DNA from: an uncultured Gammaproteobacteria bacterium
GTDB lineage: Bacteria; Patescibacteriota; Microgenomatia; UBA1406; HO2-37-13b
Length of the DNA: 48,248 nucleotides
Direction of reading: 5' to 3'
Assembly: GCA_964636045.1 (NCBI GenBank)
Contig: CAZWRH010000001.1
Span: forward strand, 1-48,248
Made by a program: the position numbers and the translations under genes. Positions 4,739 to 45,694 of this stretch are shown piece by piece. The notes under the pieces are model-generated. The model was not told the DNA's origin. It did no database searches and worked only from the letters and a program-made list of their open reading frames with translations. The first letter of the stretch is position 1, and each line of letters begins with the position of its first letter.

Positions 4739-4747
4739 TTAATAGTT

Positions 4748-4770
4748 TCCGCGAAAAAATGCGGGTTTTT
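4748..4770 (+). terminator. Weak hairpin plus T-run between grpE and dnaK (possible partial terminator or processing site)
   Basis: ccgc-gaaaaaat-gcgg followed by gttttt. The stem is only 4-5 bp. Confidence 0.3.
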
Positions 4771-4780
4771 ATAAATAAAT

Positions 4781-6688: not shown

Positions 6689-6708
6689 ACAAGAAAAAGT
6701 TATAATTA

Positions 6709-6747
6709 GACCCGTCTACTAAAAAAGTAGACGGGCTAGTTTTTTTT
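6709..6747 (+). terminator. Rho-independent terminator after dnaK
   Basis: 9-bp GC-rich stem cccgtctac/gtagacggg (6711-6719 / 6727-6735), a 7-nt loop, then ctag plus T8. Confidence 0.8.
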
Positions 6748-6753
6748 AAAAAT

Positions 6754-7614
6754 ATGGCAAAAGATTATTATTCAATACTAGGAGTTTCAAAAACTGCAAG
6801 TGAATCAGAAATAAAAGCAGCTTATAGAAAGGCTGCTTTAAAATGGCATCCTGATAAAAATAAAACAGCAGAAGCTTCTAGTAAATTTAAAGAAATAAAT
6901 AAAGCCTTTGAGGTTTTATCAGATCCGAAAAAGAAACAAATATATGACCAAGTAGGTGCAGAAGCTTACGAGAGAAATGGTTATGGTAGTGCTTCTTCAG
7001 GACAAAATCCATATGGAGCAGGTGGTCCATTCTCATATACATATTCTTCTTCAGGTGGAAATCCTTTTGAGGGTTTTGATATGGGAGGTTTTTCTGATCC
7101 ATTTGATATATTTGAACAATTTTTTGGTGGAGGTAGTGGAGGAAGATCAAGAAGACAACGTAGAATGGTCTACCAAATAGACATTTCTTTTAAAGAAGCA
7201 GTTTTAGGAGTTACAAAAGAAGTTTCTATTGAAGGGCAAAGGAAAACTATAAAGATACCAGCAGGAGTTGATAGTGGAAATAGAATTAGATTTTCTGATT
7301 TTGACATTGTAGTTTCAGTTCGATCTGATTCAAAATTTAAAAGAAATGGCCAGGATATTTATATAGAAACTCCAATTTCATTAACTCAAGCAATTTTAGG
7401 ATCGGAAGTTGAAGTAGTAACGGTTACAGAAAAAATTAAAGTAAAAGTAAAATCAGGCACACAACCTAATACAATGCTTAGAGTTAAAGGCAAAGGAATT
7501 CCATTTCCAAATTCATCACGAGTTGGAGATTTATATTTAGTTTTTAAAATAACTATTCCAGAAAAAATTTCTTCAAAACAAAAAAAACTAATTGAAGAAT
7601 TTGAAAGGAGCTAA
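6754..7614 (+). CDS. dnaJ: J-domain co-chaperone (DnaJ/CbpA-like, class II: J domain + G/F region + C-terminal substrate domains, no zinc-finger domain)
   Basis: DYYSILGV...AYRKAALKWHPDKN (HPD motif) and a G/F-rich linker. There are no CxxCxGxG repeats, and no Cys anywhere in the protein. Confidence 0.85.
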   Translation: MAKDYYSILGVSKTASESEIKAAYRKAALKWHPDKNKTAEASSKFKEINKAFEVLSDPKKKQIYDQVGAEAYERNGYGSASSGQNPYGAGGPFSYTYSSSGGNPFEGFDMGGFSDPFDIFEQFFGGGSGGRSRRQRRMVYQIDISFKEAVLGVTKEVSIEGQRKTIKIPAGVDSGNRIRFSDFDIVVSVRSDSKFKRNGQDIYIETPISLTQAILGSEVEVVTVTEKIKVKVKSGTQPNTMLRVKGKGIPFPNSSRVGDLYLVFKITIPEKISSKQKKLIEEFERS

Positions 7615-29995: not shown

Positions 29996-30026
29996 ATTTA
30001 TTAAATTTTTAAATAATAATATTGTA

Positions 30027-30437
30027 TCAAATAATATAGTTATTTTCTTTTAACCAAGGAAAAATTTGTCTTTGGCCGATTTCTGATATATGTTTCTTAT
30101 CAGTATTGCTATCAAAAAAATTTATTTCGGCAATTTCTGATGATGCAATAGGTTGTCCAATAATATTTGCTTTATACAATTTTAAATTTAAAAAAGTATT
30201 TTCTTTTCCATGAGCAATATCTTCAAATTCTTTTAAAAATTTAATTGAGCTTTTATCGATATCGCAATTAATTTCCTCTTTTACTTCGCGTACTAACGCA
30301 TCAATATCACTTTCGCCTTTTTCTATTTTTCCTCCTAACATATAAAAAACTTCTTTCTGTTTTTTGCTTCTAACCATTATTATTTTTTTATCAATAAAAA
30401 AAGCTAATGCAATTTTTTTTATTAATATTTTTTTCAT
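30027..30437 (-). CDS. NUDIX hydrolase
   Basis: Nudix box GGKIEKGESDIDALVREVKEEINCDI (Gx5Ex7REUxEExGU). Confidence 0.85.
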   Translation of the reverse strand: MKKILIKKIALAFFIDKKIIMVRSKKQKEVFYMLGGKIEKGESDIDALVREVKEEINCDIDKSSIKFLKEFEDIAHGKENTFLNLKLYKANIIGQPIASSEIAEINFFDSNTDKKHISEIGQRQIFPWLKENNYII

Positions 30438-30460
30438 AATTATTTATTTTATAATAAATC

Positions 30461-31144
30461 ATGACAGAATTTTCAGACTATATTAATAGTCAAGAAACTC
30501 AAAAAGCTAATAAAGTTAATTTGCTAAATTCTTTTGAAAGAAAAGTATTTCCACATTCAATATCTGTTGACTCAAAGTTAATAGGTCAGGAAAAGTGGAA
30601 TAAAATGCTTGAAGAAACAGAAAAAGACGGTATAGAAAGGGGAATTTTTATTTCGTCAGATGAAAAAGGTAGATCTTATTTAAGTAAAATATTTAAAGGA
30701 ACCTCTGAAATTATAAAGAATGGAGAAGTTGTTGAAAGACCATCTTTTAATTTAAGAGCAAAGGAAGAATCTATTATTGATTTATTTTTTTCACCGATTA
30801 GTTTTTTAAATCAGCAAGATATTGTGGTAGTACATACTCACCCAAAAAAATATTTAATATTTTCCGAATATGATATTTGTGCTTTTGCGCAGTCAGAATA
30901 TAATGCTTTAGTTATGTTAAATAACCTGGGAGTGCATTTATTAATTGGACAACATAGTCAGCTTAATTTAGATGAGGTTGCAGAAAAATATCAAGAGTTA
31001 AAAAATAAAAATATTTCAGATTTGTCAAAGGTAAAGGAAATGGGAGAATATATTTCTAAATTTAATTTAGGTTATTATTTTTCTAATGACTTAAAAAAAG
31101 TTGATTTAGAAAAAAATTTCATTCATACTTCAAGGCTCGAATAA
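30461..31144 (+). CDS. Hypothetical protein with a complete JAMM/MPN+ metalloprotease motif
   Basis: H-x-H-x7-S-x2-D is present as HTHPKKYLIFSEYD (30833-30874), with an upstream Glu in GIERGIFIS. I recognise no other domain. Confidence 0.55.
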   Translation: MTEFSDYINSQETQKANKVNLLNSFERKVFPHSISVDSKLIGQEKWNKMLEETEKDGIERGIFISSDEKGRSYLSKIFKGTSEIIKNGEVVERPSFNLRAKEESIIDLFFSPISFLNQQDIVVVHTHPKKYLIFSEYDICAFAQSEYNALVMLNNLGVHLLIGQHSQLNLDEVAEKYQELKNKNISDLSKVKEMGEYISKFNLGYYFSNDLKKVDLEKNFIHTSRLE

Positions 31145-31196
31145 AATTCAATCCTACTTTTAGATGTTAATTTTCTTAATATTAGATATATCAATG

Positions 31197-31283
31197 CGGA
31201 AAGGGAGGGATTTGAACCCCCGATGACCTTTCGGTCATACCGTTTTTCGAGAACGGCCCGTTCAACCACTCCGGCACCTTTCC
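31197..31283 (-). tRNA. tRNA-Ser (anticodon CGA), class II with long variable arm; CCA not encoded
   Basis: Folds by hand into a cloverleaf. Acceptor GGAAAGG/CCTTTCC, 3-bp D stem, anticodon stem CCGTT/AACGG with loop CTCGAAA, variable arm TGACC-GAAA-GGTCA, T arm GGGGG-TTCAAAT-CCCTC, discriminator G. Length 87 nt. Confidence 0.92.
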
Positions 31284-31298
31284 AGTATCCATATTGTA

Positions 31299-32351
31299 TC
31301 AAAGCTTGATTATTTCAAAATCACATTCAATTTCTTTTACAATTTCTTTTTCAGTTGTCGTCATTATTGTTTGATGATTTTTAATAAGAGATAAAATAAC
31401 TTTTTTATTGTTTATATCGAGTTCTGAAAAAATATCATCAAGTAATATTAATGGTTTAATGTTTAATTTTTCTTCATATAGTTTTATTTCATTTAAAATA
31501 ATCCAAAATAATGCTAGTCTTTGTTCACTTCTTGATCCAAATTTATGTACATTTTTGTCATTTAAAAAAATTTCAAAGTTATCTCTTTGTGGACCCACTA
31601 AAGTTCTTTTTATTAAAAATTGTTTTTCAAAAGTATCAGCAAGTGTAATGTGTGATAATATTTTTGGCTCATAAATTATCTTCATGTTTTTAGAGTCTAC
31701 TTTTGGGTTGCTGTTTAAAAATTCACAAAAATCTTGTCTTTTTGAAACTAAATAATCAGCCTGTTCAATTAAATAATTATCCCAAAACTTTAAGTTTTCT
31801 TTTAATTTATTTTTATCAATTTCTTTTTCAATTATTTTATTTCTTTTCCTAAGTCCTGTTTCATAATTTGACAGTCTTTTTTTATATTCATTATCAAAAC
31901 TGCCAATTATTGAATCAAAATATTCTCTTCTTTCTGAAGGATCACCATCTATTACAAACATTAAGTTTGGTGAAAATATAACTGCAGGAAAACTATTTTT
32001 TTGATATTCTCGAGAAATTTTTTTTACTTTATTTATAAAATATACTTTGACAATTTTATTTGATTCATAAGACTGAGAATTGCTTTTTTGCATTACAATT
32101 CTTAATTCTTTTTTTTCCAAACTATCTTTTAAAGTTGCTGTTGAATAAAGCTCATTACATTTTTCACATATTAGTTCTTCTTCTTTTTTTTCTCTAAATC
32201 CATTACCTCTCAAAGTAAAATAAATGGATTCTAAAAGATTGGTTTTTCCTATAGAATTTTTACCAAGAATAATGGTTAAACAATCACTAAAATTAAAAGT
32301 ATTTTTTTGGAAGTTGCGAAAATTATTTATTTCAATTTTTGCTAGTTTCAT
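31299..32351 (-). CDS. recF: DNA replication and repair protein RecF
   Basis: MKLAKIEINNFRNF...ILGKNSIGKTNLLESIYF (Walker A), the signature GSRSEQRLALF-like motif, and Walker B ILLDDIFSELD. Confidence 0.88.
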   Translation of the reverse strand: MKLAKIEINNFRNFQKNTFNFSDCLTIILGKNSIGKTNLLESIYFTLRGNGFREKKEEELICEKCNELYSTATLKDSLEKKELRIVMQKSNSQSYESNKIVKVYFINKVKKISREYQKNSFPAVIFSPNLMFVIDGDPSERREYFDSIIGSFDNEYKKRLSNYETGLRKRNKIIEKEIDKNKLKENLKFWDNYLIEQADYLVSKRQDFCEFLNSNPKVDSKNMKIIYEPKILSHITLADTFEKQFLIKRTLVGPQRDNFEIFLNDKNVHKFGSRSEQRLALFWIILNEIKLYEEKLNIKPLILLDDIFSELDINNKKVILSLIKNHQTIMTTTEKEIVKEIECDFEIIKL

Positions 32352-32368
32352 GGTAAATATTTTACCTT

Positions 32369-33703
32369 TTATTCACTCTTTTTTTTTAGCAAAAATAATG
32401 ATTCAAAAAAACTTGGAAGTTTAAAAAATTTTCTAACGATAATTACGTTTTCAAATACTCTAAACATATGATTCCAAAAGCTTTGTCTAAAAACTGAAAT
32501 ATGAGAAAAGTCATCTCCATGAGTTATATTTACCCAATGGTTTTCTTTAGTATAAATTTTATGAAGTATCCATTTTTTTGAAACCCTAATACTTTCCTCA
32601 AGTGATTTTTTTAACTTAGATCTTTCTATGTGTTCTAAAACATCAAATGATAATACCAAATCAAAAGATTCGTCTTTATAAGGAATTTTGGTGATATCTC
32701 CATATTTTATGTATGGTTTTAATTCTTTATCCGCTACTTCAAGTGCATATTTAGAAATTTCAATTCCATATGCTTCAATATCAAGTTTTCTTAAATACTT
32801 AATTAAACTTCCATTACCACAACCAATATCTAAACAATTTTTAGGATTAATAAATGTTTTTATCCAAAAAGCTCTATACATGTTAGCCAAATTTTGAAGA
32901 GTTTTTCCTAAAAATGATTCTGTATATGCGAGTGGATATTCTCCTTTTTTTCCTTCAAAATATTCTCTGTCGTAAAAGGAATTATCAACTTTAAATGGAG
33001 TAATAACAGTTCCAATAAATGGTTCCCCATTTAATACATTTTCTAAATTTCTAAATTTTTTTCCATGAGCAACGATAACGGTAAGTCTTTGTTTTTTTGC
33101 AAGTTGAGACGCGATAGGATCAAATGGTGCGTTTACTCCAGGAACCCATTCATCACCAACAATTTTTTCAAAAAAATCCCAAGTAGTTTTTTTTATTGGT
33201 TGTGCATCTTTAAAAACTCTTGGATCTTTGTCAAAAACATAATCAATATTTGACATGTTTATAATTACTGAAGCATGATAGTTTATGGCTAAAACTGTTG
33301 CACAATAATCAGTAGATCTTCCTGGTTTCCAGCCAGAACCAATAATAACTGGTTCTTTCCAATTTTTTATTTTTTTTGCGTAGTCTTTAATAATTACTGG
33401 ATGTGCGATATCTTGAAAAATAGTTCTTACAAGATGAGCATTTAGTCGAGTACTATGAATTCCTAGCCAATCCAAATCGTCATTAGTCAATTCTCCAATA
33501 ACACTTTTTCCAGCTCCAATATAACGCCTTGCAATTGATCCACCTCCAGTTACGATGATAAATCTTTTTCCTTTTTTAATTTGATCCCTAACAAAAGAAT
33601 TGAGTTTTTTTAGAAAATCAATATCAACTTCATCTCCAGGAACAATTAAACTTCCACCAACTGACAAAATTATTGTTTCTTGGTTTTTTTTATGAAATGA
33701 CAT
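32369..33703 (-). CDS. Fusion protein: archaeal-type UMP kinase / amino-acid-kinase-fold domain (N-terminal, ~aa 1-235) + class I SAM-dependent methyltransferase (C-terminal, ~aa 270-444)
   Basis: N-terminal part: ILSVGGSLIVP...FIIVTGGGSIARRY...GSGWKPGRSTD. C-terminal part: CLDIGCGNGSLIKYL (motif I) and FDLVLSFDVLEHI (motif II/III region). Confidence 0.7.
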   Translation of the reverse strand: MSFHKKNQETIILSVGGSLIVPGDEVDIDFLKKLNSFVRDQIKKGKRFIIVTGGGSIARRYIGAGKSVIGELTNDDLDWLGIHSTRLNAHLVRTIFQDIAHPVIIKDYAKKIKNWKEPVIIGSGWKPGRSTDYCATVLAINYHASVIINMSNIDYVFDKDPRVFKDAQPIKKTTWDFFEKIVGDEWVPGVNAPFDPIASQLAKKQRLTVIVAHGKKFRNLENVLNGEPFIGTVITPFKVDNSFYDREYFEGKKGEYPLAYTESFLGKTLQNLANMYRAFWIKTFINPKNCLDIGCGNGSLIKYLRKLDIEAYGIEISKYALEVADKELKPYIKYGDITKIPYKDESFDLVLSFDVLEHIERSKLKKSLEESIRVSKKWILHKIYTKENHWVNITHGDDFSHISVFRQSFWNHMFRVFENVIIVRKFFKLPSFFESLFLLKKKSE

Positions 33704-33717
33704 TTTTTTATTGGCGT

Positions 33718-33744
33718 AAAAAAACCCCCTTTTGTTTGGGGGTT
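33718..33744 (-). terminator. Intrinsic-terminator-like hairpin in the 5' leader of the UMPK::MTase gene (candidate attenuator)
   Basis: The minus strand reads AACCCCC-AAACAAAA-GGGGGTT followed by a U-run (7 U in total after GGGGG). It ends 14 nt upstream of the ATG at 33703. Confidence 0.6.
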
Positions 33745-33754
33745 ATTAATTTAC

Positions 33755-33829
33755 TTAAATTAAATAAATAATTTTTAAATCAGATTGTTTAGGGAAAAAT
33801 TTCATCCATTTGGCGAAATTTGATTGCAT
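33755..33829 (-). CDS. Candidate leaderless 24-codon leader peptide (MQSNFAKWMKFFPKQSDLKIIYLI)
   Basis: The ATG lies 10 nt downstream of the extended -10 at 33840-33848. The stop TAA lies 10 nt upstream of the terminator stem. This is speculative, because short ORFs arise easily in AT-rich DNA. Confidence 0.3.
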   Translation of the reverse strand: MQSNFAKWMKFFPKQSDLKIIYLI

Positions 33830-33839
33830 ACAAATTTAA

Positions 33840-33848
33840 ATTATAGCA
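33840..33848 (-). promoter_or_regulatory. Extended -10 (TGcTATAAT) on the minus strand driving the leader / UMPK::MTase-recF-tRNA-Ser operon
   Basis: The minus strand reads acTGCTATAATttaaatttgtATG. Confidence 0.5.
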
Positions 33849-33853
33849 GTTTT

Positions 33854-33882
33854 TTGACAAAAAACAACGCTTATAGTACAAT
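33854..33882 (+). promoter_or_regulatory. Near-consensus sigma-70 promoter TTGACA-17-TACAAT, 9 nt before the ATG at 33892
   Basis: TTGACA at 33854-33859, a 17-nt spacer, TACAAT at 33877-33882. There is no SD, so a leaderless or ~2-nt-leader mRNA is predicted. Confidence 0.65.
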
Positions 33883-33891
33883 TTTGTTGTA

Positions 33892-34746
33892 ATGAGGCGC
33901 TTAAGACTAACTATAACCCTAAAAGAATCTACAGTTTTAGATGTTGATAAATTAATCGATGGACAAAAACTTAGAAATAGATCTCATGCTATTGAGTATA
34001 TTCTTAACCAAAATTTAAACCAAAAAGTATATAAAGCAATAATTCTTGCTGGAGGTCGAGGAACAAAACTTAGACCATACACTTTAGAAACTCCAAAATC
34101 TCTTCTTTTAATCAAAGGACAACCTATTATTAAATATTTAATTGAGAATTTAAAAAAATCTGGAGTAACTGATATTATGATCTGCGTTGGCCATTTGGGA
34201 AATAAAATAAAGGATTATTTAAAAGATGGAAAAGAATTTGGAGTAAAAATTTCTTATTCAGAAGAAAAAAAACCACTTGGAACTGGTGGTGCAATTTCTA
34301 AGATAAAAGATTTTATTGATGATAAGCCATTTTTAGTTTTACATGGAGATATTCTTATTGATTTAAATTTAAAAGATTTGCTTGAATATCATAGCGAACA
34401 GGGTGGCTCAATTATAGGAACAATTGCATTATCTCAAGTCAATAATTCTTCAATGTGGGGACAGTTTAGAATGCATGGTACAAAAATAGTTAATTTTATT
34501 GATAAAACAAAAAAAGGAGAAGAAGAGAGTCATTTAATTAATACTGGAGTTTATGTTTTTGAAAAGAAAATATTTGATTATTTTCCAACTGGCCAAAAAA
34601 CTTTTTTACTTGAAGATATTATAAAAAATTTAATTAAAGATAGAAAAATTACTGGCTTTGTTTTTGAAGGTCAATGGTTTGATGTTGGAACGCCAGAAAC
34701 TTACGAAGAAGCGATAAAATCTTTTTTATTAAAATCCTCCACCTGA
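33892..34746 (+). CDS. Fusion protein: N-terminal ribbon-helix-helix (CopG/Arc/MetJ-like) domain + sugar-1-phosphate nucleotidyltransferase
   Basis: aa 1-45 read MRRLRLTITLKESTVLDVDKLIDG...NRSHAIEYILNQNL (beta-alpha-alpha RHH pattern). This is followed by ILAGGRGTKLRPYTLETPKSLL (the NTP_transferase G-loop) and ...LGTGGAI...VLHGDIL.... Confidence 0.7.
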   Translation: MRRLRLTITLKESTVLDVDKLIDGQKLRNRSHAIEYILNQNLNQKVYKAIILAGGRGTKLRPYTLETPKSLLLIKGQPIIKYLIENLKKSGVTDIMICVGHLGNKIKDYLKDGKEFGVKISYSEEKKPLGTGGAISKIKDFIDDKPFLVLHGDILIDLNLKDLLEYHSEQGGSIIGTIALSQVNNSSMWGQFRMHGTKIVNFIDKTKKGEEESHLINTGVYVFEKKIFDYFPTGQKTFLLEDIIKNLIKDRKITGFVFEGQWFDVGTPETYEEAIKSFLLKSST

Positions 34747-35049
34747 TAATCCAAAAATTGTTGCAATAATTTTTGTTAAAACATAAGAACTAATCAGTAA
34801 TATAAATCCAATTAATGCAGCTGTAATTTTTGCTTTTCCGTTTTCAATTTTTTTAGCATCACCAAAAGACAATAAATAATTGTATCCACCCCAAATTAAA
34901 TATAAAAAAAGCAATATTCCTCCAAGTGGAAAAAGAAAGGTTAGAGTTTTGGTTATGACTGATCCAATATTGTTAAAGCTACTATCAAGAGGTCCTTGAA
35001 TGGTTTGACTTCCAACTGTGATACTTTGAGCTAAGATTTTATTTTCCAT
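34729..35049 (-). CDS. Small two-TM protein resembling VirB2/TrbC-type 'T4SS pilin' proteins common in CPR genomes
   Basis: LFPLGGILLFLYLIWGGYNYLLSFGDAKKIENGKAKITAALIGFILLISSYVL: two hydrophobic helices around a short G-D-x-K-K loop. The family assignment is from memory, not a search. Confidence 0.5.
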   Translation of the reverse strand: MENKILAQSITVGSQTIQGPLDSSFNNIGSVITKTLTFLFPLGGILLFLYLIWGGYNYLLSFGDAKKIENGKAKITAALIGFILLISSYVLTKIIATIFGLSGGGF

Positions 35050-35690
35050 ATTGTATTAACTTTAATAATTATATAAAAAAATAAATTAATTATTATTGAT
35101 ATTAAAAAGTATTTATTTATGTCTATTAAAAAATTTGTAAAAGTGTTTATTTTAAAAATAGATCTTATATCTATGTTTAAAATATAAAAAATACAACCCA
35201 ATATCAATATAAACCCAATAAAATAATATAAATCTTTTAAATCTTCTTTAGAAGAAAACATGGATGAAGATATTGAAAAAAATAAATAGCAAAATAATAG
35301 GTTTGTTATTAAAGAGTTTGATGGAAAAAAATTAAAATGGAATATATAATAAAAAAATCCAATCCCAAAAAGTAGGGGAGATATTCCAATAACAAATCCT
35401 CTTAAAAAATCAGTTTTTTCAATTGAAACAGATCCAAGAGTTACTTCTTTATTTCCAATTTTTGGAATTAAATCAATTTTGTTTATCTTTGTTAACAGAA
35501 ATAATGCACTAAATAGATGAGATAATTCATGAAAAACGGTACCAGGTAAATATAAAATCGATATTAAATAATAGCTAATTTTTGAATTTTTAAAACTTTT
35601 ATAAAATAAATAGAAGATTTTTTTTTGAATATAAATTGAAAAAAAATAAATTACAAGTATTTGCAGAATAAGTAAAAAAAAATATTCCAT
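35031..35690 (-). CDS. Polytopic membrane protein with an HExxH motif (M50B/site-2-protease-like putative zinc metalloprotease)
   Basis: GTVFHELSHLFSALFL, with HExxH at 35517-35531 at the edge of a TM helix, followed by a ...KEVTLGSVS... loop and 4-5 further TM helices. Confidence 0.45.
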   Translation of the reverse strand: MEYFFLLILQILVIYFFSIYIQKKIFYLFYKSFKNSKISYYLISILYLPGTVFHELSHLFSALFLLTKINKIDLIPKIGNKEVTLGSVSIEKTDFLRGFVIGISPLLFGIGFFYYIFHFNFFPSNSLITNLLFCYLFFSISSSMFSSKEDLKDLYYFIGFILILGCIFYILNIDIRSIFKINTFTNFLIDINKYFLISIIINLFFYIIIKVNTIWKIKS

Positions 35691-36049
35691 TATTTAGCTT
35701 CAGATGTGGCAGTTTTTGCCTCACTTGTTGCTTTTTTGATTGGGGTTACTATTATCGTTGGAGAAGGTGACGCGATCTTTGCTTCTGGGGTAGATTTTTT
35801 TATTGTGCTTGGTGTTGGTGTAGATAAAACTTCTTCCTCTTCGGTTGTATTTGGGATAATAACCTCTTCATTTTGAGGTTCTTCAATAATAGGTGGTTGA
35901 TTCTTTTTTTGAATATAAATAAATAAAATTACTGAAAAAATAGCTGCAACTATTGTTAAAGCAACTAACAAATAATAATTCATATTAGAAGAATTCTTAT
36001 TTGGATTTTTTATCTTTTCTAAATCAATTGGTGTAAAATTTTTTTCCAT
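35690..36049 (-). CDS. Single-pass membrane protein with a Pro/Thr/Glu-rich extracytoplasmic tail (tandem ATSEAK)
   Basis: 119 aa with a TM helix at about aa 25-47. Its start is 1 nt after the AAA+ gene's stop, and its own stop overlaps the next start (TAATG). Confidence 0.5.
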   Translation of the reverse strand: MEKNFTPIDLEKIKNPNKNSSNMNYYLLVALTIVAAIFSVILFIYIQKKNQPPIIEEPQNEEVIIPNTTEEEEVLSTPTPSTIKKSTPEAKIASPSPTIIVTPIKKATSEAKTATSEAK

Positions 36050-36050
36050 A

Positions 36051-39000
36051 TTATATTTCTTTATTATTAGTGCTTAAACATTTAGGACAAATAATCGTTG
36101 AATTTTTTACTATTTCAGTTTCAAAGTTGTTTTGACATTTTTCACATTGAAATTTCTTTATAATTTTATTTTGCATTTTTTTATCAGAAAATTCAAGCTT
36201 TTCAATATTAAATATAAAATGTTCTCCTTCAAAATCTAAATTTATCTGATCTGATTCTTCAAGTTTTTTTTCAATGATTAGAGTTGATATTGGGTTTTCA
36301 ATCAAATTTTGGATAGTTCTTTTTAGTGGTCTAGCACCATAAATTGGATCAAATCCAACCCTAACAACCTCTTTAATTGCATTCTCTTTATAGTTGAATC
36401 CGATATTTTGTTCTTCAAGTAATTTTTTTAAGCCTTTTAATTGAAGATCAACAATCTTTGTCATGTGTTGATATTTTAATGGTTCAAAAATAATTACTTC
36501 ATCAAATCTATTAATAAGTTCTGGTTTAAAAAATTTTCTAAGTTCCAACATTACTTTGCTTTTCATATTTGAATAAGTATTATTTTCAAGTTCGACTTCT
36601 TTTTTCTTTTTTTGTTCAAGTTCTTTTTCAAGAGGAAAATCTTTTCCAAAATATTCTTTAAGTAAACTCATTTTGAAGTTTTCTTCATTAATTTTTCTTA
36701 TCCAAATCTTTTCTCCTGCGATTATATATTCATTTCCAGATGGATCAAAGGTGTGAATGTCCCAATAATTAAATGGTAAATTCAAATCTTCTTTATTTTT
36801 AAAATAATTTTTTAAAGTACCAGTTTCCCAATCATTTTGACCTTCTTTTCTTTTCCAATATCTATCTTTAAAAGTGATAATTTCATATTCATCCGCAGTA
36901 AATGTATGGGTTTTTAGTTTTGCAGTTGGTAGCTGTTCATCAGGTGAGTCTGGCATAGCATTAACTACAACAGAATCTTTAAAATATTCAATTAGATTAA
37001 TAGTTTTCCATATTTTTGAAGTGGTAGACGATCTTATATATGCAATTTCTTTTAATGTAATTATTTCAATTCCTTTTTGAGAAATTGCGTGAGTGTCAAA
37101 ACCAGAAATTGGAAAGCTATAATTTGAATCTTCAATTTTTTCTCCAGCAAAATAATCATAAAGCATTTTACTTTGCCATGTTGTTGTTTTTGTTGAATCT
37201 AAATTTGGTTGTTTTTCAAAAATTTTATTTATGATTGTTAACATTTCTCTTCCTCGAGGTGAGAAAGTATATGTTGATAAGATAGTTGGTTCTTCAATTT
37301 CAACTTTCCCAGTTTTTAAAATTTCATCTTGAATAAGTGTACTTCCTATATTTGAAGTACAAATAATTACTGTATTTTTAAAAGAAATAGTTCTTCCTTT
37401 ATTATCTGTTAGTCGTCCATCATCAAGTATTTGAAGAAGGATATTAAAAATATCTGGATGAGCTTTTTCTACCTCGTCAAATAAAACAACAGAGTAAGGT
37501 TTTCTTCTAACTGATTCGGTAAGTTTTCCACCTTCATCATATCCAACATATCCAGGAGGTGCACCAAGTAATTTAGCAACTTCATGTTTTTCCATGTATT
37601 CAGTCATATCAAGCCTTACAATAGCTTCTTCCTGGCCAAATAATATTTCTGCTAAGGTTTTAGCAAGTTCTGTTTTACCAACTCCAGTAGGTCCCATGAA
37701 AACAAAACTTCCGATTGGTTTTTGAGTATTTTTAAGTCCAGCACGTCCTCTTCTAACAGCTTGTGCTACTGCTGAAACTGCAACTTCTTGATTAATAAGT
37801 CTTTCATGCATAATATCTTCAAGCTTTGCAAGTTTTTCAGTTTCTGAATCAGAAATTTTTGTGACTGGTATACCAGTCCAACGACTAACAATATCTTTAA
37901 TAATCTCAACACTAACAGATGAAGTTGTCTGACCTTTTTTTATTTTAAATTCTTCTTGTTTTTGATTTAACACTACTTGTAAATCGTCGATTTTTGGTTG
38001 AAGAATTCCAATTTTAACTTTATTTAGTGCTTTTTGAGCTTCTTGAAGTTCTTGTTTATATTCAGAAAGTCTTTCTTCAGTACTTCTTATTTCTTCAGGT
38101 AAAGAAATAAGTGGCAATCTAACAGCTGCTGCAGATTCATCAATTAAATCAACTGCTTTATCAGGTAAAAACCTATCTCCAACATACCTTTTTGATAATT
38201 TGACAGCTGCTTCAAGGGTATCATCAGGAATTTTTACCCGATGATATGATTCGTATTTGTCTCTTGTTGCTTTAAGCATTTTTATTGCTTGCTCTTCGGT
38301 AGGTTCAGGAACTAAAACTGGTTGGAATCGTCTCTCTAATGCTGCATCTTTTTCAATATATTTTCTATATTCTGTTAAAGTTGTTGCTCCAATTATTTGA
38401 AGTTCTCCTCTAGCGAGTGAAGGTTTTAAAAAATTTGAAGCATCAAGCGTTCCTTCAGCACCTGCTCCAGCTCCTACTAAATTATGAATTTCATCTATAA
38501 ATAAAATTATTTTTCCTTTTGCATTTTTAACTTCTTCGATTAATGACTTCATTCTTTCTTCAAATTCACCTCGATGAGAAGTACCGGCTAAAACGCTCAT
38601 TAAATCAAGTTGTAATATTTTTTTATCAAGCAATGATTCTGGAACTTCTTTTTTTACAATTTTTTGAGCTAATCCTTCAACTATAGCTGTTTTTCCAACT
38701 CCAGCTTCTCCAACTAAGACAGGATTATTCTTAGTTCTTCTTGATAGATTGTGAATAACTCTTTCAATAACATCCGATCTTTCAACAACAGGATCAAGAA
38801 GTCCTTGTTGAGCCTTTTGAGTTAAGTCGTTTGTAAATAATTCTAAAACACTTTTTTTCTTTTCTTTTTCTTCACCATTTACTCCTTCTTTTTTACCTGT
38901 AATTTTTTTATTTAATTCTTCTTTTTTTATACCGAGTTTAACCAAGATGTTAGCGGCAACACCTTCTTGTTCTTCAAAAAGTGACAATAAAATATGTTCT

Positions 39001-39569
39001 GGAGAAATAAATTCAAAACCCATTTTTCTAGCAGTAACAAGTGCTTTATCTAAAATTCTTTTAACTCTTGGTGATGGCTGTGGGTTGGTTGGTGCGGTTC
39101 CTTTTTTATAAATTTTATCTAGTTCTTGATCAATTATTTGAGGTTGTATTTTAATATCAACAAAAAATTTATATATTTCTGGATCAGTTAATAGTCCATG
39201 AAGCAAATGCTCAGTATCAACAAAATCATTTTGAAGATCTTTAGCTTTATTTTGAGCTATAACAAATACTTTATTGGATCGTTGTGTAAAATGAGTCATT
39301 AGATCAAGATCTGGTGCTTGAGGTGTTTTTTGAACAGGAGTCTCTTTTTTTTCTGTAGCAACAATTGGAGTCTCTTTTTTTTCTTCTTCTTCAATAAAAT
39401 GTGCTGTATTCAAATTGTTAGTTGATTTTTGAGTTACCTCAGCAACTTCTTCTTTAATAACAACTTTTTCATCTTGTTTGATGTCTGGCGGATTATTAGA
39501 AACAGCTGTTACTGGTTGATTTGGAGATGGGTTTTTAGAATTTGAAAACATATCAAAAATACCTGCCAT
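36051..39569 (-). CDS. Atypical ClpB/ClpC-family double-ring AAA+ unfoldase: disordered N-tail, Clp_N repeats, D1, short M-domain, D2 with a ~240-aa four-repeat insertion, C-terminal zinc ribbon
   Basis: Clp_N repeats are present (...TEHLLHGLL..., ...[10 protein letters not shown]...). D1 has Walker A GEAGVGKT and Walker [10 protein letters not shown]2 has [37 protein letters not shown] and the pore loop GYVGY, plus GARPLKR sensor-2. The preferred start is ATG 39569 (MAGIFDMF...). The track start at 39605 is a TTG that coincides with a TTGACA -35 box. Confidence 0.9.
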
Positions 39570-39576
39570 AATTTTC

Positions 39577-39605
39577 ATTATTAAAAAAATAAAAACATTT
39601 GTCAA
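39577..39605 (-). promoter_or_regulatory. Promoter TTGACA-17-AATAAT, 7 nt before the AAA+ gene ATG (39569)
   Basis: On the minus strand, TTGACA lies at 39605..39600, followed by a 17-nt spacer. AATAAT lies at 39582..39577, followed by gaaaatt and the ATG. Confidence 0.55.
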
Positions 39606-39627
39606 TTAAGTAGTTTTTATTTATTAT
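39599..39627 (+). promoter_or_regulatory. Promoter TTGTCA-17-TATTAT, 7 nt before the ATG at 39635
   Basis: On the plus strand, TTGTCA lies at 39599-39604, followed by a 17-nt spacer. TATTAT lies at 39622-39627, followed by tagtaat and the ATG. Confidence 0.55.
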
Positions 39628-39634
39628 TAGTAAT

Positions 39635-40375
39635 ATGAAATTTAGTAGGGGAATAATAATTTTTATATTTGTTTTTTTATTTTTAACTAAAATTTCAAAT
39701 CCAGTTTTTGCAGAAACTTCTTCTTTGCAAAACTCAAATTCTGCAAGTTATTTTGATATTTTTTATGATTTAATAAAAAAACTTTTAACTTTTTCTACAG
39801 ATGACTTAAATAGCGAAACTACCACGTCAAGTTCTGTGGGAGGTGGTGGAGCAGGAGCTTCTCGAAGCTGGGATCCATTACCAAATATTGATGGAAATAC
39901 TTTGGAGCAAAACAAAGCATTAGCTGAACAAATTTTGGCAAATTCTAATATAGATTTAAATTGTTATACTGATAGTTGTGGTCATAGTTCAGCTGAAGTA
40001 ATTTCTTCTTTAAAAAATGGTCAAGCACCTGTTATTTGTTCTGGGGGTTGTTCAAATTGTGCTGCTGGAGGACCTTCTGGATCAACAACAATGAATCCAA
40101 AAGTTTTGCAAGGAATTTTAGAAGTTGGTAAAACTGATTCTATTTGTATAACTGCTTTATCTAATGGAGTTCATAGTGTTGGAAGTACTCATTATGATGG
40201 AAATGCAGTTGATATTGATGCAGGAGGAAAAAGCGCTGGAGATTTGCAAAGAATTAGAAATCAATTACAAAGTTATTGTGGTTGGGCTATTTGTGAGCCT
40301 CCAGGAGGAGGATCTGATCCAAGTTGTTCAACTGCAAGTCATATTCATTGGACTTGTGCACCTGGTGGTGATTAA
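39635..40375 (+). CDS. Secreted Cys-rich LAS/M15-type peptidoglycan peptidase (VanY/D-Ala-D-Ala carboxypeptidase-like fold)
   Basis: Signal peptide ending ...NPVFA|ET, the S-x-H-x-x-G-x-A-x-D motif as STHYDGNAVD, a downstream H-x-H (SHIHW), and 10 Cys. Confidence 0.6.
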   Translation: MKFSRGIIIFIFVFLFLTKISNPVFAETSSLQNSNSASYFDIFYDLIKKLLTFSTDDLNSETTTSSSVGGGGAGASRSWDPLPNIDGNTLEQNKALAEQILANSNIDLNCYTDSCGHSSAEVISSLKNGQAPVICSGGCSNCAAGGPSGSTTMNPKVLQGILEVGKTDSICITALSNGVHSVGSTHYDGNAVDIDAGGKSAGDLQRIRNQLQSYCGWAICEPPGGGSDPSCSTASHIHWTCAPGGD

Positions 40376-40380
40376 TTTTT

Positions 40381-41223
40381 ATGAGAAAAATTTTGTTTAT
40401 TTTAATTATATTTGCTTCAATTTTGGGAAATTCTGTTTTTGCTGTAGAAACAAGCAATGGTCAAGTGAATCAAAATGCTGTTGGAGTTTTTATAGATTTT
40501 TTAAATAAATTTCTAAATGCTCCTGCTGAAAATGATGATGTTGGTTCAAATTCACAAAATAAAACAAATGGATTGTCTCCTTTTGCAGGATCTGTTACTG
40601 ATATTAATCAATTAATATCTCCAGACACAATGTCTCCTGAGGCGGCAAATATGATGGGTGCAGTTGCAGGGTGTATTAATAATAGAGCCGCTTATGAAGA
40701 GGCAAGTAGATATACAGGGGCACCTTGGCAAGTTTTAGCAGGTATTCACTATCGAGAAGGAAATTGTAATCCAAATGCTTCTTTAGTATCAGGGCGGCCA
40801 ATCGGAGAAGCGGAGCCTGACATGGAGTATAACTGTTCGTCTGCAATTGAAAATGGTTTAGCTATTCCAGTTAATGGTGGTTGTGGCTTTGCCACTTTAA
40901 CACAAAGTGCAATTTATGCGGCTAGACATTTAATTGATAAGATTGGTAAAGTTCCTCAATCTTTTGAAGAGTTAGGAACTGCATTATCAAGATATAATGG
41001 AGGAGGAAATTCTAATTGTGGGAAGACGCCTTATCCATATTGTCCTCCAGCTTTTTCTGGTGATGACGATCCATATCCAATGGCGCTTTTGGATGAAAAA
41101 CACAAAACAATGTACGTTATATATTGTGAAGATGGGGTAGCAAATACTGCCGGATGTCCAAGAGTTGATCAAAATCCTGGAGTATTAACAGCTATTTCTC
41201 TTATATCATTTGCAACAAAATAA
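40381..41223 (+). CDS. Secreted Cys-rich lysozyme-like / SLT-like lytic transglycosylase candidate
   Basis: Signal peptide ending ...NSVFA|VE; WQVLAGIHYREGNCNPNAS (an SLT-like catalytic-Glu context) and ...AARHLIDKIG...LGTALSRYNGGG (an SLT-like AYNAG region). Confidence 0.45.
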   Translation: MRKILFILIIFASILGNSVFAVETSNGQVNQNAVGVFIDFLNKFLNAPAENDDVGSNSQNKTNGLSPFAGSVTDINQLISPDTMSPEAANMMGAVAGCINNRAAYEEASRYTGAPWQVLAGIHYREGNCNPNASLVSGRPIGEAEPDMEYNCSSAIENGLAIPVNGGCGFATLTQSAIYAARHLIDKIGKVPQSFEELGTALSRYNGGGNSNCGKTPYPYCPPAFSGDDDPYPMALLDEKHKTMYVIYCEDGVANTAGCPRVDQNPGVLTAISLISFATK

Positions 41224-41224
41224 A

Positions 41225-41830
41225 ATGGAAAAACTAGATGATAAAAAAGTTTTTATAATCTTTTCAGTATCAATTGTTTTAATGATGCTTTTAATTCTAT
41301 TTTTTTCTATTAATACTAAAAAAATAAATGTTGCTAACAATGAAGAGTCTCAATCTGAATCAAATGTAAAAAAAGACTATTTAGCCGAACAAAGAAATAA
41401 AAACGCTAATTTACCAATGCCTATAAAAAATATTCCTACACTTTCAGTAAGTGAAGGAAAAGGAGTTGATATAGCCTCAGATGAAGTTGTTTCTTCGAAA
41501 ACAGAAATTTCTAAATTATCAGAAAAATTACCTTTTAATAAAAAAATTACTACTTCTAAAGGATTATCTATTGAGATTATGATTCCAGAACAAAAGCTTC
41601 AAGATAATGATTTTTCATTGACAGTTTATATATTTGGTATTAATTATGAGGTTGAAAATGATTCTCGAGATTACCTTATTCAAAAAGTTTCTTTTCAAGA
41701 AGGAGCAAAAGAAGTGTTTAGTTTTTTAAAGCAAAATAATATTGACGTTACAAACTTAATAGTAAGATGGGGAGATAGAAAAAAAATTCGGGATAAAGCA
41801 GAGAATTGGCTTTTAGAGAGCGTAATGTAA
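41225..41830 (+). CDS. Membrane-anchored hypothetical protein (N-terminal TM, extracytoplasmic domain)
   Basis: ORF with an ATG at 41225 (MEKLDDKKVFIIFSVSIVLMMLLILFF...). The track start at 41210 is a TTG inside the previous gene. Confidence 0.55.
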   Translation: MEKLDDKKVFIIFSVSIVLMMLLILFFSINTKKINVANNEESQSESNVKKDYLAEQRNKNANLPMPIKNIPTLSVSEGKGVDIASDEVVSSKTEISKLSEKLPFNKKITTSKGLSIEIMIPEQKLQDNDFSLTVYIFGINYEVENDSRDYLIQKVSFQEGAKEVFSFLKQNNIDVTNLIVRWGDRKKIRDKAENWLLESVM

Positions 41831-41870
41831 AATTGAGAATTAATTAAAAATTTGTTATATTTATAAAACT

Positions 41871-42335
41871 ATGGAACAAATAAATGGAGTAATGATAAAA
41901 AAACTTGTAAGAAACAAAGATGAAAGAGGTTTCTTTGAAGAGATAATTAGAGTTACTGATGATTTTTTTAAAGAAGGTTTTGGACAATTCGCATACTCTC
42001 ATATGCATCAAGGCGTTATAAAAGCATGGCATGTTCACAAAACTCAAATAGATTGGTGGTATGTTGCTGAAGGTACATGTAAAGTTGCGTTATACGATAC
42101 TAGAGAAGATTCTTCAACAAAAGAGATATTAAATGAATTTATTATTGGAGAGCATGGGGAGGATATTGTTATTAAAATACCAGCTGGAGTAGCTCATGGT
42201 ATAAAAGCAATTGGAGGACCAGCTAAACTATTTTATATAACTTCAGGAGTTTATAATCCAGATGAGGAAGGAAGAATTGTTTATAACGATCCAAAAATTA
42301 ATTACGATTGGTTAAAATTACCTCCAATAAAATAA
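41871..42335 (+). CDS. Cupin-fold sugar-nucleotide epimerase/isomerase (dTDP-4-dehydrorhamnose 3,5-epimerase-related, short form)
   Basis: DERGFFEEI..., ...KAWHVHKTQIDWWYVAEGTCKVALYD..., ...IPAGVAHG.... It lies immediately upstream of rmlB. Confidence 0.6.
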   Translation: MEQINGVMIKKLVRNKDERGFFEEIIRVTDDFFKEGFGQFAYSHMHQGVIKAWHVHKTQIDWWYVAEGTCKVALYDTREDSSTKEILNEFIIGEHGEDIVIKIPAGVAHGIKAIGGPAKLFYITSGVYNPDEEGRIVYNDPKINYDWLKLPPIK

Positions 42336-42337
42336 TT

Positions 42338-43309
42338 ATGAGAATATTAGTAACAGGAGGAGCAGGTTTTATCGGATCAAATTTTATTCTATATTGGTTA
42401 AAAAATAATCCAAATGATCAGATAGTAAATCTTGATAAACTGACCTATTGTGGTAATCTTGAAAATTTACAATCAATTGAAAATAATCCAAACTATCGAT
42501 TTGTAAAAGGAGATATTTGTGACAGAGGTTTAGTTGATTCATTAATTAAAGAGACGGATTTGGTAGTTCATTTTGCTGCAGAAAGTCATGTTGATAGGTC
42601 AATCTCTGATCCTTCTCCATTTATTAATACTAATATTCTAGGAACCTATACTTTACTTGAATCTGCAGTTAAGAATAATTTAAAAAGATTTCATCATATT
42701 TCAACTGATGAAGTTTTCGGTGCACTAGATATTAATTCTAAAGAAAAATTTACTGAAAATACAAAATATGATCCACACAGCCCATACTCTGCTTCAAAAG
42801 CCTCATCAGACCATTTAGTTAGGGCTTATTTTGATACATATAAACTTCCTGTTACAATATCAAATTGTTCAAATAATTTTGGACCATATCAATTTCCAGA
42901 AAAGCTTATTCCACTTGCAATAACAAACTTAATAGAAGGTAAAAAAATTCCAGTTTATGGAGATGGATTATATGTTAGAGATTGGCTTTATGTTGAAGAT
43001 CATGTTAAAGCCGTTGAGATTATCTTAAAAAAAGGAACAGTTGGAGAAACTTATTTAATTGGTGGATTAACAGAAGACATTCCAAATATTGAGATTGCAA
43101 AAAGGATTTTAAAAATAATGGGTAAAGGAGAGGATTTTATTGAATACGTAACTGATCGTCCAGGACATGATAGGAGATATAGTGTTGATTGGAGCAATAT
43201 AAATAAAAAATTTGGATGGTCTCCTGAATTTGATTTTGATACTTATCTTGAAAAAACAATTGAGTGGTATAAAAACAATGAAAGTTGGTGGAAAAAACTT
43301 AAAAAATAA
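42338..43309 (+). CDS. rfbB: dTDP-glucose 4,6-dehydratase
   Basis: MRILVTGGAGFIGSNF (Rossmann fold), HFAAESHVDRS, STDEVFG, and the catalytic YSASKASSDHLV (YxxxK) motif. The ATG at 42338 is preferred. Confidence 0.92.
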   Translation: MRILVTGGAGFIGSNFILYWLKNNPNDQIVNLDKLTYCGNLENLQSIENNPNYRFVKGDICDRGLVDSLIKETDLVVHFAAESHVDRSISDPSPFINTNILGTYTLLESAVKNNLKRFHHISTDEVFGALDINSKEKFTENTKYDPHSPYSASKASSDHLVRAYFDTYKLPVTISNCSNNFGPYQFPEKLIPLAITNLIEGKKIPVYGDGLYVRDWLYVEDHVKAVEIILKKGTVGETYLIGGLTEDIPNIEIAKRILKIMGKGEDFIEYVTDRPGHDRRYSVDWSNINKKFGWSPEFDFDTYLEKTIEWYKNNESWWKKLKK

Positions 43310-43314
43310 ATATT

Positions 43315-43950
43315 TTAAGGAATAGAAATTATTTTTTTTATATAAACTTTACTTATTGTCGTTTTTTTTCCATTAGCTCCAACAGCTTCAATGATTACTG
43401 GGTTTTTTTCGTTATATAAAGATATTGTTGTCTCAAAAGTATTATCATTTTTTAGATATACTCTTTCATTATTTACATTAATTATTGTTTCTTTATCAGT
43501 TTTTCCAATAAGTGTTATTTTATCTTGGTTTTTAAATAACGTTTCTTTTGGCTGAATTATTTCTAAATTTGGTGGAGTAAGATAAAGTTTTATTTGATAA
43601 AAAAAGAATAAAACAAAAATAATAAAAATTAATGAAATAGTTTTCTGAAAAAACTTTCTAATTTGAGGAATTAAATAATTGTTTTTTATTCCTTCATTAA
43701 ATTTTAAATCTTCTTTTTTTTCATATTCTCTTCTAAAAAAAGCGACTAATTTATCTTCTTTGAGATTTAAAAACTTTGCATAAGTTTTAATTATGCCAAT
43801 AATGTAAGTCTTTGATGAAAAAACTTTCCAATCTTCGTTTTCAACAGCTTCTAAATTTTTTTTCCTAATTTTAGTTGCTTTTTCAATATCGACTATTGTT
43901 AGTTTTTTATTTAATCTTTCTCTTTTTAAAATTTCTCCAACTGTAAGCAT
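43315..43950 (-). CDS. rodZ: RodZ-like cytoskeleton-associated protein (HTH + TM + C-terminal beta domain)
   Basis: N-terminal Xre-type HTH GEILKRERLNKKLTIVDIEKATKIRKKNLEAVENEDW, a central TM helix, and a C-terminal beta-rich domain. Confidence 0.65.
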   Translation of the reverse strand: MLTVGEILKRERLNKKLTIVDIEKATKIRKKNLEAVENEDWKVFSSKTYIIGIIKTYAKFLNLKEDKLVAFFRREYEKKEDLKFNEGIKNNYLIPQIRKFFQKTISLIFIIFVLFFFYQIKLYLTPPNLEIIQPKETLFKNQDKITLIGKTDKETIINVNNERVYLKNDNTFETTISLYNEKNPVIIEAVGANGKKTTISKVYIKKIISIP

Positions 43951-43974
43951 AATATTATAGTGATTTAGTATATC

Positions 43975-44005
43975 AAAAAAAGCGCTCTCTTATTTAGAGA
44001 GCGCT
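43975..44005 (-). terminator. Rho-independent terminator after groEL
   Basis: 9-bp stem agcgctctc/gagagcgct with a 7-nt loop. On the minus strand it is followed by a T-run (plus-strand A6 at 43975-43980). Confidence 0.8.
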
Positions 44006-44023
44006 TTTAAATAATTCTTTTTT

Positions 44024-45694
<1,671 letters not shown>

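Follow-up and report, generated by a model that had tools for sequence, protein, structure and literature searches.

A probable cassette of leader-tagged cell-wall hydrolases with a membrane-anchored partner in Microgenomates Patescibacteria

Effector/immunity and polymorphic toxin loci, such as the T6SS (type VI secretion) pairs Tae/Tai and Tge/Tgi, Xanthomonas X-Tfe/X-Tfi and the Bdellovibrio DD-endopeptidase/Bd3460 pair (PMC3482391), join a constant N-terminal trafficking part to swappable enzyme domains, and place behind the enzyme a small gene whose type matches the enzyme type. Predators, according to work cited in PMC8080830, pair wall hydrolases with self-protection proteins. A different use of such enzymes is represented by the VirB1 proteins of monoderm bacteria, in which a glycosidase plus a peptidase is the canonical combination (PMC12102498); TraG of pIP501, PrgK of pCF10 and CwlT of ICEBs1 carry glycan- and peptide-cutting modules outside the membrane. 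For Southlakia epibionticum, homologues of peptidases and lysozymes encoded beside virB4 and the type IV secretion system (T4SS) are reported to be essential, as PMC12102498 relates with reference to PMC10633639. In epibiotic growth, wall hydrolases close to the patescibacterial T4SS can be indispensable (PMC12102498, PMC10633639). Still to be explained is how ultra-small, host-dependent Patescibacteria cross the wall of another bacterium and leave their own intact. Here we describe a three-gene operon, A-B-C, in a 48,248-nucleotide (nt) stretch of contig CAZWRH010000001.1 (assembly GCA_964636045.1), referred to as the window. We consider it probable that A-B-C is one lineage's version of a conserved, modular wall-hydrolase cassette of Patescibacteria of the Microgenomates/Roizmanbacteria group, in which the enzymes carry a docking tag and C controls B.

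The operon consists of three co-directional open reading frames (ORFs) on the plus strand, each single-copy in the 935-kb genome. Gene A (39635..40375, 246 amino acids (aa)) encodes a predicted exported zinc peptidase of the LAS/Hedgehog fold; gene B (40381..41223, 280 aa), which starts after a spacing of 5 nt, a predicted exported glycosidase of the lysozyme superfamily; and gene C (41225..41830, 201 aa) a putative single-pass, membrane-anchored partner of B. The coordinates that an earlier, sequence-only reading of the window had given for A and B were confirmed. Both enzymes start with what looks like a Sec signal peptide, with V-F-A as the cleavage motif. In A the candidate signal peptide covers aa 1-26 (39635..39712, ...NPVFA/ETSS), with an n/h/c-region pattern and a helix at residues 4-20 in the predicted structure; in B it covers aa 1-21 (40381..40443, ...GNSVFA/VETS), with a helix at residues 2-16. 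Export thus appears to be plain Sec export, unlike that of T6SS, T4SS or type VII secretion system effectors. Each mature protein then carries a short leader helix in its model, YFDIFYDLIKKLL at aa 39-53 of A (39749..39793), which is conserved in orthologues and amphipathic (hydrophobic moment muH 0.53), and AVGVFIDFLNKFL at aa 31-45 of B (40471..40515), which aligns with FKMVIDLFKSML of the orthologues. In A this helix is followed, up to about aa 85, by a disordered Ser/Thr/Gly-rich linker, where the predicted local distance difference test score (pLDDT) falls below 50.

The sequence-only reading had proposed that A and B share a leader beyond the signal peptide. The similarity is real, although modest within the window and clear only when orthologous loci and profile comparisons are brought in. 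In the window alone, the mature proteins gave a local alignment score of 35, against 20.7 +/- 3.8 for shuffled sequences (p ~0.006). In orthologous loci the two leaders are nearly identical, EESVFKIVIDLFKSIL in A and EESTFKMVIDLFKSML in B, and a hidden Markov model (HMM) of the helix built from A proteins alone matches B orthologues with E values of 5e-9 and 5e-8; it missed the diverged B of the window itself. An hhalign comparison of the whole N-terminal regions of A and B, signal peptides included, gave a probability of 98% (E 1e-13).

The distribution of the leader is informative in its own right. We read 17 related loci for comparison, 15 from the order plus L037 and L038. The leader is alike on the enzymes of a locus inside one genome and different between genomes, and up to three different co-operonic hydrolases per genome carry one and the same leader. 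The domains that bear it include LAS, CHAP, Amidase_2, M14 with C39_2, C39_2 alone and lysozyme-like enzymes. In most leader pairs the amino acids match while codon identity is at background (36-58%), and this retention of amino acids without codons points to selection on the peptide itself. Locus L038 is different: over ~150 nt, the leader DNA of its C39-like enzyme is ~97% identical to that of B, with 86% identical codons, and both the signal peptides and the downstream parts differ; this similarity is, as we read the DNA, gene conversion. Many leaders end in FGG or GGG, after which a disordered linker begins.

The leader was found on no other ORF among the 2,516 of the genome, and in two near-complete relatives (G046, G101) it matched only genes of the locus. 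A genome-wide sorting signal was therefore rejected, the leader being confined to the locus in all three genomes. The view that it is a targeting or docking helix is strengthened by the way it tracks with different hydrolases within a genome and by its restriction to the locus. One further match, in C10:16761-17342 (E 1e-3), was discarded, as it covered only 14 internal residues of a protein that does not look secreted. We also discarded the idea that the leader is a remnant of a VirB2-like pilin hairpin, which had come from its placement by MAFFT and from the resemblance of IVNFLLKSL to IVIDLFKSIL; hhalign gave probabilities of 1-30%, driven by the signal peptide.

The N-terminal part of these enzymes takes other forms elsewhere. 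In L047 and L056 the CHAP enzyme and B have in common at the N-terminus not a short helix but an entire immunoglobulin (Ig)-like domain of ~80 aa that contains Cys. In three loci of the window's own family (L048, L050, L051), B-type glycosidases begin with a VirB2-like module of two helices where B of the window has signal peptide and leader, a thioredoxin-reductase-like gene precedes B, and a shortened C (160-166 aa) follows it. Judged by these proteins, signal peptide plus leader and the pilin-type module look interchangeable on B.

The catalytic domain of A (aa 86-246, 39890..40372) contains the motifs S184-T-H186-Y-D-G189-N-A191-V-D193 and H236-I-H238-W, in which H186, D193 and H238 are the putative zinc ligands; H180, E221 and H236 are conserved residues near them. 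H180, H186 and D193 are invariant across 134 representative relatives, the H186-x6-D193 spacing is invariant also in sets of 30 and 22 relatives, and H236 and H238 are at least 90% conserved in the 134 representatives and invariant in the close sets. Eight close orthologues with ~50% identity were listed (the initial search gave six, and the family profile added one), together with a remote relative of 312 aa. In a profile search of 1.8 billion representatives (E <= 1e-3), 297 proteins share residues ~86-241 of A. No Pfam or NCBIfam model matched A at threshold, and sequence searches of PHROGs and the PDB gave nothing usable. Once the family profile had been deepened with domains from genome and metagenome loci, a match to the Hedgehog N-domains in the PDB emerged (E 2e-4), aligned on the zinc motif GHHSxxSLHYEGRAVDI. 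Sub-threshold Pfam matches of the family go in the same direction, with HH_signal at E 0.024, Peptidase_M15_3 at 0.066 and Peptidase_M15_4 at 0.13. The AlphaFold2 (AF2) model of A has pLDDT >90 over residues 86-240, and a Foldseek search of the PDB placed Hedgehog N-domains in all of the top 30 ranks (probability up to 0.98, root mean square deviation ~3.2 A over 92 residues) and the Streptomyces zinc DD-peptidase 1lbu at rank 31. The LAS/M15 signature and the SHIHW motif noticed in the sequence-only reading are thus supported by residue invariance, profile match and predicted fold alike. By motif and predicted fold A is a member of clan MD (LAS) that belongs to no described family.

Compared with the described members of the clan (the Hedgehog N-domain, the S. 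albus M15A enzyme 1lbu and the VanX/VanY-type M15 peptidases), A has the same Hx6D and HxH motifs, its HSxGSxHYxGxAxDI segment resembles HSEESLHYEGRAVDI of Hedgehog locally, and the central sheet/helix fold is matched by Foldseek. Unlike these relatives, it carries at its N-terminal end a further subdomain, helical and rich in Cys (aa 86-150), with possibly as many as five disulfides. The family also differs from M15 and Hedgehog proteins in that practically all of its matches are from Patescibacteria and in its typical fusion to a VirB2-like pilin module, the T4SS_pilin domain being present in 42 of 84 representative proteins with the A domain. Other domains associated with it are SLT, Glucosaminidase, PG_binding_1/3, M23 and VanY; the A-type domain and SLT occur in one protein in P0067 and P0074. 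From its domain partners (SLT, glucosaminidase, PG-binding, LysM and M23), we infer that the substrate of A is the peptide part of peptidoglycan. Among the individual architectures, L009:5338-6996 (Saccharimonadales) has the order LysM, A-type LAS domain, glucosaminidase; L015:2485-4335 has two tandem LAS-like domains behind a pilin-like hairpin; and in L020:130-2211 a pilin-like hairpin and a LAS-like domain come before an SLT-like part and a second motif of the VanY type.

The catalytic domain of B (aa ~95-280, 40663..41220) was delimited from invariant columns, the model and fold matches. Its two main motifs are GIHYRE126G and Y205-NGGGNSNC. The candidate catalytic residue E126 (40756-40758) is invariant and lies at the C-terminal end of helix 116-127, just before a beta region, and YNGGGN (40993-41010) forms an invariant block; S134, G138, G142, E145, D147, G207, G209, N210, N212 and C213 are, like E126, invariant in 59 B sequences. 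The 58 homologues have no Pfam catalytic-domain match, and a few are labelled 'lysozyme family protein' by JGI; none of the 59 members matches Pfam SLT (PF01464), and searches of NCBIfam, PHROGs and PDB sequences with B gave nothing usable. The AF2 model of B has a pLDDT of 85.7. In Foldseek comparisons with the PDB, g-type lysozymes, Tge2 and MltF/C/E lead the list (best E 0.02, probability 0.97), all neighbours with a probability above ~0.5 belong to the lysozyme superfamily, and the low-probability tail holds FlgJ- and chitinase-type lysozyme-like domains. Against BFVD, a viral library, the best match had E 2.7e-4 and probability 1.0, and the next ones were SLT/LT_GEWL proteins.

B therefore compares with the GH23 lysozyme superfamily (goose-type lysozyme, SLT/MltE/MltC/MltF and Tge2, 4kt3) at the level of predicted fold: it has an invariant Glu at a helix end before the beta hairpin, and a YNGGG-type motif in the position of the SLT AYNxG. 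The SLT-like Glu and YNGGG regions pointed out in the sequence-only reading do line up with the SLT motifs, but a sequence-level link between B and SLT was dropped, the hhalign comparison being non-significant and the Glu of B being followed by Gly where the SLT dyad is E-S. B also departs from its GH23 relatives in a Cys-rich C-terminal extension and in its lack of a significant sequence or profile match to them. We regard B as a divergent lysozyme/GEWL-like glycosidase, to judge from its modelled fold, with a chemistry that would follow from that fold. The invariant acidic residues E145 and D147 recall g-type lysozymes, so that B possibly hydrolyses the glycan strand rather than cleaving it by lytic transglycosylation. 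Both enzymes are Cys-rich for this genome, as had been proposed, with 10 Cys in A (98th percentile of the ORFs) and 8 in B (95th percentile), the count of 9 first given for B being one too high.

C has a membrane anchor at about aa 9-29, its only N-terminal hydrophobic stretch, then a linker and a conserved domain of ~110 aa (PTLxPxEGxGxD ... LPY ... WGDR in the family alignment); it has no match in Pfam or the PDB, and NCBIfam and PHROGs searches with it likewise yielded nothing of use. The sequence-only reading was right about the anchor. The overlap with the end of B that it described arose because TTG 41210 was taken as the start of C. Translation from ATG 41225, one base past the B stop codon (TAA), leaves no overlap and matches the N-terminal start (ME[KR]...) in all C orthologues. 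Among 151 genomes of the order, B occurs in 26 and C clearly in 16, and in 16 of the 16 genomes with C, B lies directly upstream on the same strand; the anchored partner is thus an obligate neighbour of B. None of the remaining 25 genomes of the order with B has the A domain. Across the loci there are at least three types of partner protein, unrelated in sequence, and the type tracks the enzyme type: C follows B, a type of ~150 aa follows C39-like and M14 enzymes, and an Ig-like type follows CHAP enzymes. Treating C and the other small partners (types X and Y) as one family was rejected, hhalign giving less than 4% and the HMM matches covering only the hydrophobic N-terminus.

The locus resembles the effector/immunity loci in having a constant N-terminal part and exchangeable enzyme domains. 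A small gene of matching type follows most of the enzymes, though not A. The locus differs from effector/immunity loci in that the partners are single-pass membrane proteins of unassigned fold, that the B-C pair is stable rather than polymorphic and that A has no partner.

In the loci compared, the genes come in a shared order. A divergently oriented ClpC-type gene stands first, next come one or two genes for exported enzymes, mostly with a small single-pass partner behind them, and then B and C. Behind C there are often genes for a polytopic membrane protein (550-580 aa) and for proteins with pilin domains. The enzyme before B belongs, by Pfam, to CHAP, Amidase_2, M14 with C39_2 or C39_2, and in the window's lineage it is the LAS peptidase A. 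In the genome studied here the polytopic/pilin part of the locus sits apart from A-B-C, at C11:4720-7279, where a Cys-rich exported protein ending in a T4SS_pilin module (4720-5523, +) is adjacent to a 551-aa polytopic membrane protein (5624-7279, -) whose homologues (phmmer E 8e-90) come directly after C in relatives. The back-to-back arrangement of the operon with an atypical Clp gene, noted already from the sequence, is kept in 14 loci; in the window this is a ClpC/ClpB-type unfoldase gene at 36051..39605 on the minus strand, and we treat it as context only. The divergent pairing spans genera, being found in L037, L038, L042-L044, L046, L047, L049, L054 and L055 as well as in the window's lineage. 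There is no evident reason for so persistent a pairing of a cytoplasmic unfoldase with exported wall hydrolases.

Taken together, these observations suggest the following course of events. A and B would be exported by Sec, with removal of a classical signal peptide. The mature proteins, by models and conservation, consist of a short amphipathic helix, a flexible Ser/Gly-rich linker and a Cys-rich catalytic domain. A, as a zinc peptidase of the LAS/Hedgehog/DD-peptidase fold, would cut peptidoglycan peptides, and B, as a lysozyme-superfamily enzyme with E126 as its acid catalyst, would cut the glycan strand. The leader, shared by the enzymes of a locus and restricted to them, would be a tag specific to the locus that gathers all of the cassette's hydrolases at a single surface site or partner. 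C, which always adjoins B, would be anchored in the membrane of the producing cell, expose its conserved domain to the outside and act as B's cognate controller, most likely an immunity-like inhibitor or a tether that spares the producer's own wall. What favours an outward, accessory role is that the genes are patchily distributed, that enzyme classes are exchanged, that partners are specific to enzymes, that relatives are fused to pilin modules and that the genome has separate division hydrolases. Even so, if the cassette is what we propose, the balance tips only slightly towards the wall of another cell, that of an epibiont's host, and away from remodelling of the producer's own.

Several points weigh against this proposal. 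The fold assignments come with weak Foldseek E-values (0.02-0.05 against the PDB, and 0.05-0.2 among the matches of A), no curated family threshold was reached for either enzyme, and hhalign of B against SLT domains of related candidate phyla radiation (CPR) proteins gave a probability of 0.4%, which is not significant. The outside location proposed for the C domain is based on N-termini that resemble signal anchors and on linkers of Pro/Ser/Thr; the charges on either side give no clear indication. A is without a partner gene of its own in the window and in the relatives L001, L003 and L040, which is a poor fit to an immunity model unless C covers A too or the producer's wall lacks the bond that A attacks. 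Finally, in the window's lineage the operon is single-copy and lies among housekeeping genes (ClpC, GroEL/ES, RodZ-like and rhamnose genes), a setting that fits self-remodelling equally well.

This last point leads to the alternative to which we give most room, a tentative one, that A and B are a pair of housekeeping autolysins for growth, separation or shape, with the leader as a surface-retention helix and C as an activator or anchor, by analogy with the LytB modifier of B. subtilis LytC or with control of the EnvC/FtsX type. The single copies, a GC content at third codon positions (GC3) that is native, and the position kept beside the ClpC, GroEL/ES, RodZ-like HTH_25 and rhamnose genes throughout the window's lineage would all suit such a role, as would the finding that B is the sole lysozyme-like glycosidase detected in the genome; the amphipathic helices, for their part, could lie on the membrane surface. 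However, the genes are patchily distributed in the order, the first enzyme varies over five or six hydrolase classes, each with its own type of partner, which is unusual for core growth enzymes, and half of the relatives have these catalytic domains joined to pilin modules of the VirB2 type. Dedicated division hydrolases are, moreover, encoded elsewhere in the genome, namely M23 and FtsEX with a coiled-coil C39-like protein. The pilin fusions, which involve both catalytic domains, bring up the VirB1-like reading that the two enzymes open the producer's own wall for a T4SS/VirB2-type pilus or another trans-envelope machine. The union of glycosidase and peptidase, the Southlakia precedent mentioned above, a pilin gene at 34729-35049, only 4.6 kb away, and the polytopic and pilin-domain proteins that follow C in relatives speak for it. 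We nevertheless think it unlikely. The VirB4-like ORF lies on contig C3 (21.6-23.1 kb), away from the operon, which is therefore no classical VirB1 locus; a VirB6-like pilin fusion is on C38 and pilin arrays are on C16, C22 and C38, whereas the window holds one pilin gene. A and B have apparently cleavable signal peptides rather than membrane anchors (a pilin-type anchor takes the place of the signal peptide in the B relatives of L048, L050 and L051 and in half of the A-domain proteins), and the homology of leader and pilin is unsupported. TraG, PrgK and CwlT are each one membrane-anchored polypeptide, and their peptidases are of the CHAP or M23 type, whereas here there are two separate proteins, apparently Sec-exported, with a shared leader, a LAS-type peptidase and, away from virB4, a dedicated membrane partner. 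Enzyme-specific partners and the swapping of enzymes would also be left unexplained.

Two further explanations concern the leader and the origin of the genes. The leader could be a latency pro-peptide, in which helix and linker hold the enzymes inactive until a protease, possibly the HExxH membrane protein of the divergent operon, cuts near the Gly-rich stretch. The FGG/GGG ends with the disorder behind them, the presence of that membrane metalloprotease gene in the neighbouring operon and the specificity of the leader for the hydrolases of the locus agree with this, but L001, L003 and L040 keep the leader and lack the protease gene, and a leader that diverges between genomes and matches within them is better accounted for by a common binding partner than by intramolecular inhibition in enzymes of unrelated fold; we hold the pro-peptide to be improbable. 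The idea that A and B are recently acquired foreign or phage-derived lysis genes started from base composition. The region is indeed more GC-rich than its surroundings, as the sequence-only reading had seen by eye, with 40001-41000 being the richest kilobase of the window (36% against about 27%). The hint of foreign origin drawn from this did not hold up, as GC3 is low to average: 9% in A (2nd percentile) and 16% in B (57th percentile), compared with 15% as the genome median. Codon positions 1 and 2 account for the excess, which reflects the richness of A and B in Gly, Ala, Cys and Pro. Furthermore, L001, L003 and L040 have the genes in the same operon position with ~50% protein identity, tblastn found no match in 50,697 phage records, and the ORFs listed for 30000-45000, which flank the operon, show neither an integrase nor repeat boundaries. 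GC3, conserved synteny and the lack of phage matches together effectively rule out a recent foreign origin, to which we attach almost no credence.

If A-B-C is the tagged cassette that we favour, tag and partner as a pair could show how Patescibacteria direct their wall-degrading enzymes and keep them in check. The two catalytic families involved have no Pfam model, and the LAS-like domain alone comprises ~300 representative clusters, half of them pilin-fused; should the enzymes turn out to be ordinary autolysins, two widespread families of hypothetical proteins would be annotated all the same. The unit may also be larger than the operon, although we regard this as rather doubtful. The ClpC-type unfoldase with its propeller insert, the hydrolases and their partners, the polytopic protein and the pilin proteins would then form a so far undescribed wall-breaching apparatus of Microgenomates, in which the leader, or in sister lineages a covalently fused pilin hairpin, would load the hydrolases of each genome on a common membrane or pilus platform at host contact while the partners would shield the producer's own wall.

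Within the operon, a consensus scan found a promoter-like site, TTGTCA-17-TATTAT (39599..39627, 10 of 12 matches; a consensus likeness only), that ends 7 nt before the ATG of A and whose -35 hexamer overlaps the -35 of the divergent Clp gene; a sequence scan found no terminator-like site within A-B-C. Downstream, at 41871-43950, the window encodes a cupin (RmlC-like), a dTDP-glucose 4,6-dehydratase-type epimerase and an HTH_25/RodZ-like membrane protein (-), and envelope-related genes are kept downstream of the operon in L001, L003 and L040 as well. Elsewhere in the window, a sub-threshold match to AAA_10 (VirB4/TraG-type P-loop) lies at 11330-11482 (+) inside an ORF of 724 aa. On another contig of the genome, C11:10706-13590 (-) encodes FtsE-like and FtsX-like proteins and then an exported protein of 413 aa that combines a C39_2-like domain with a long coiled coil and appears to be a division hydrolase of the PcsB/EnvC style on a C39-like fold. 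The ORFs of contigs C30, C39, C42, C44, C58 and C59 have 65-70% GC and a GC3 of ~0.8, for a genome median ORF GC of 28%, and look like contaminants of the bin.

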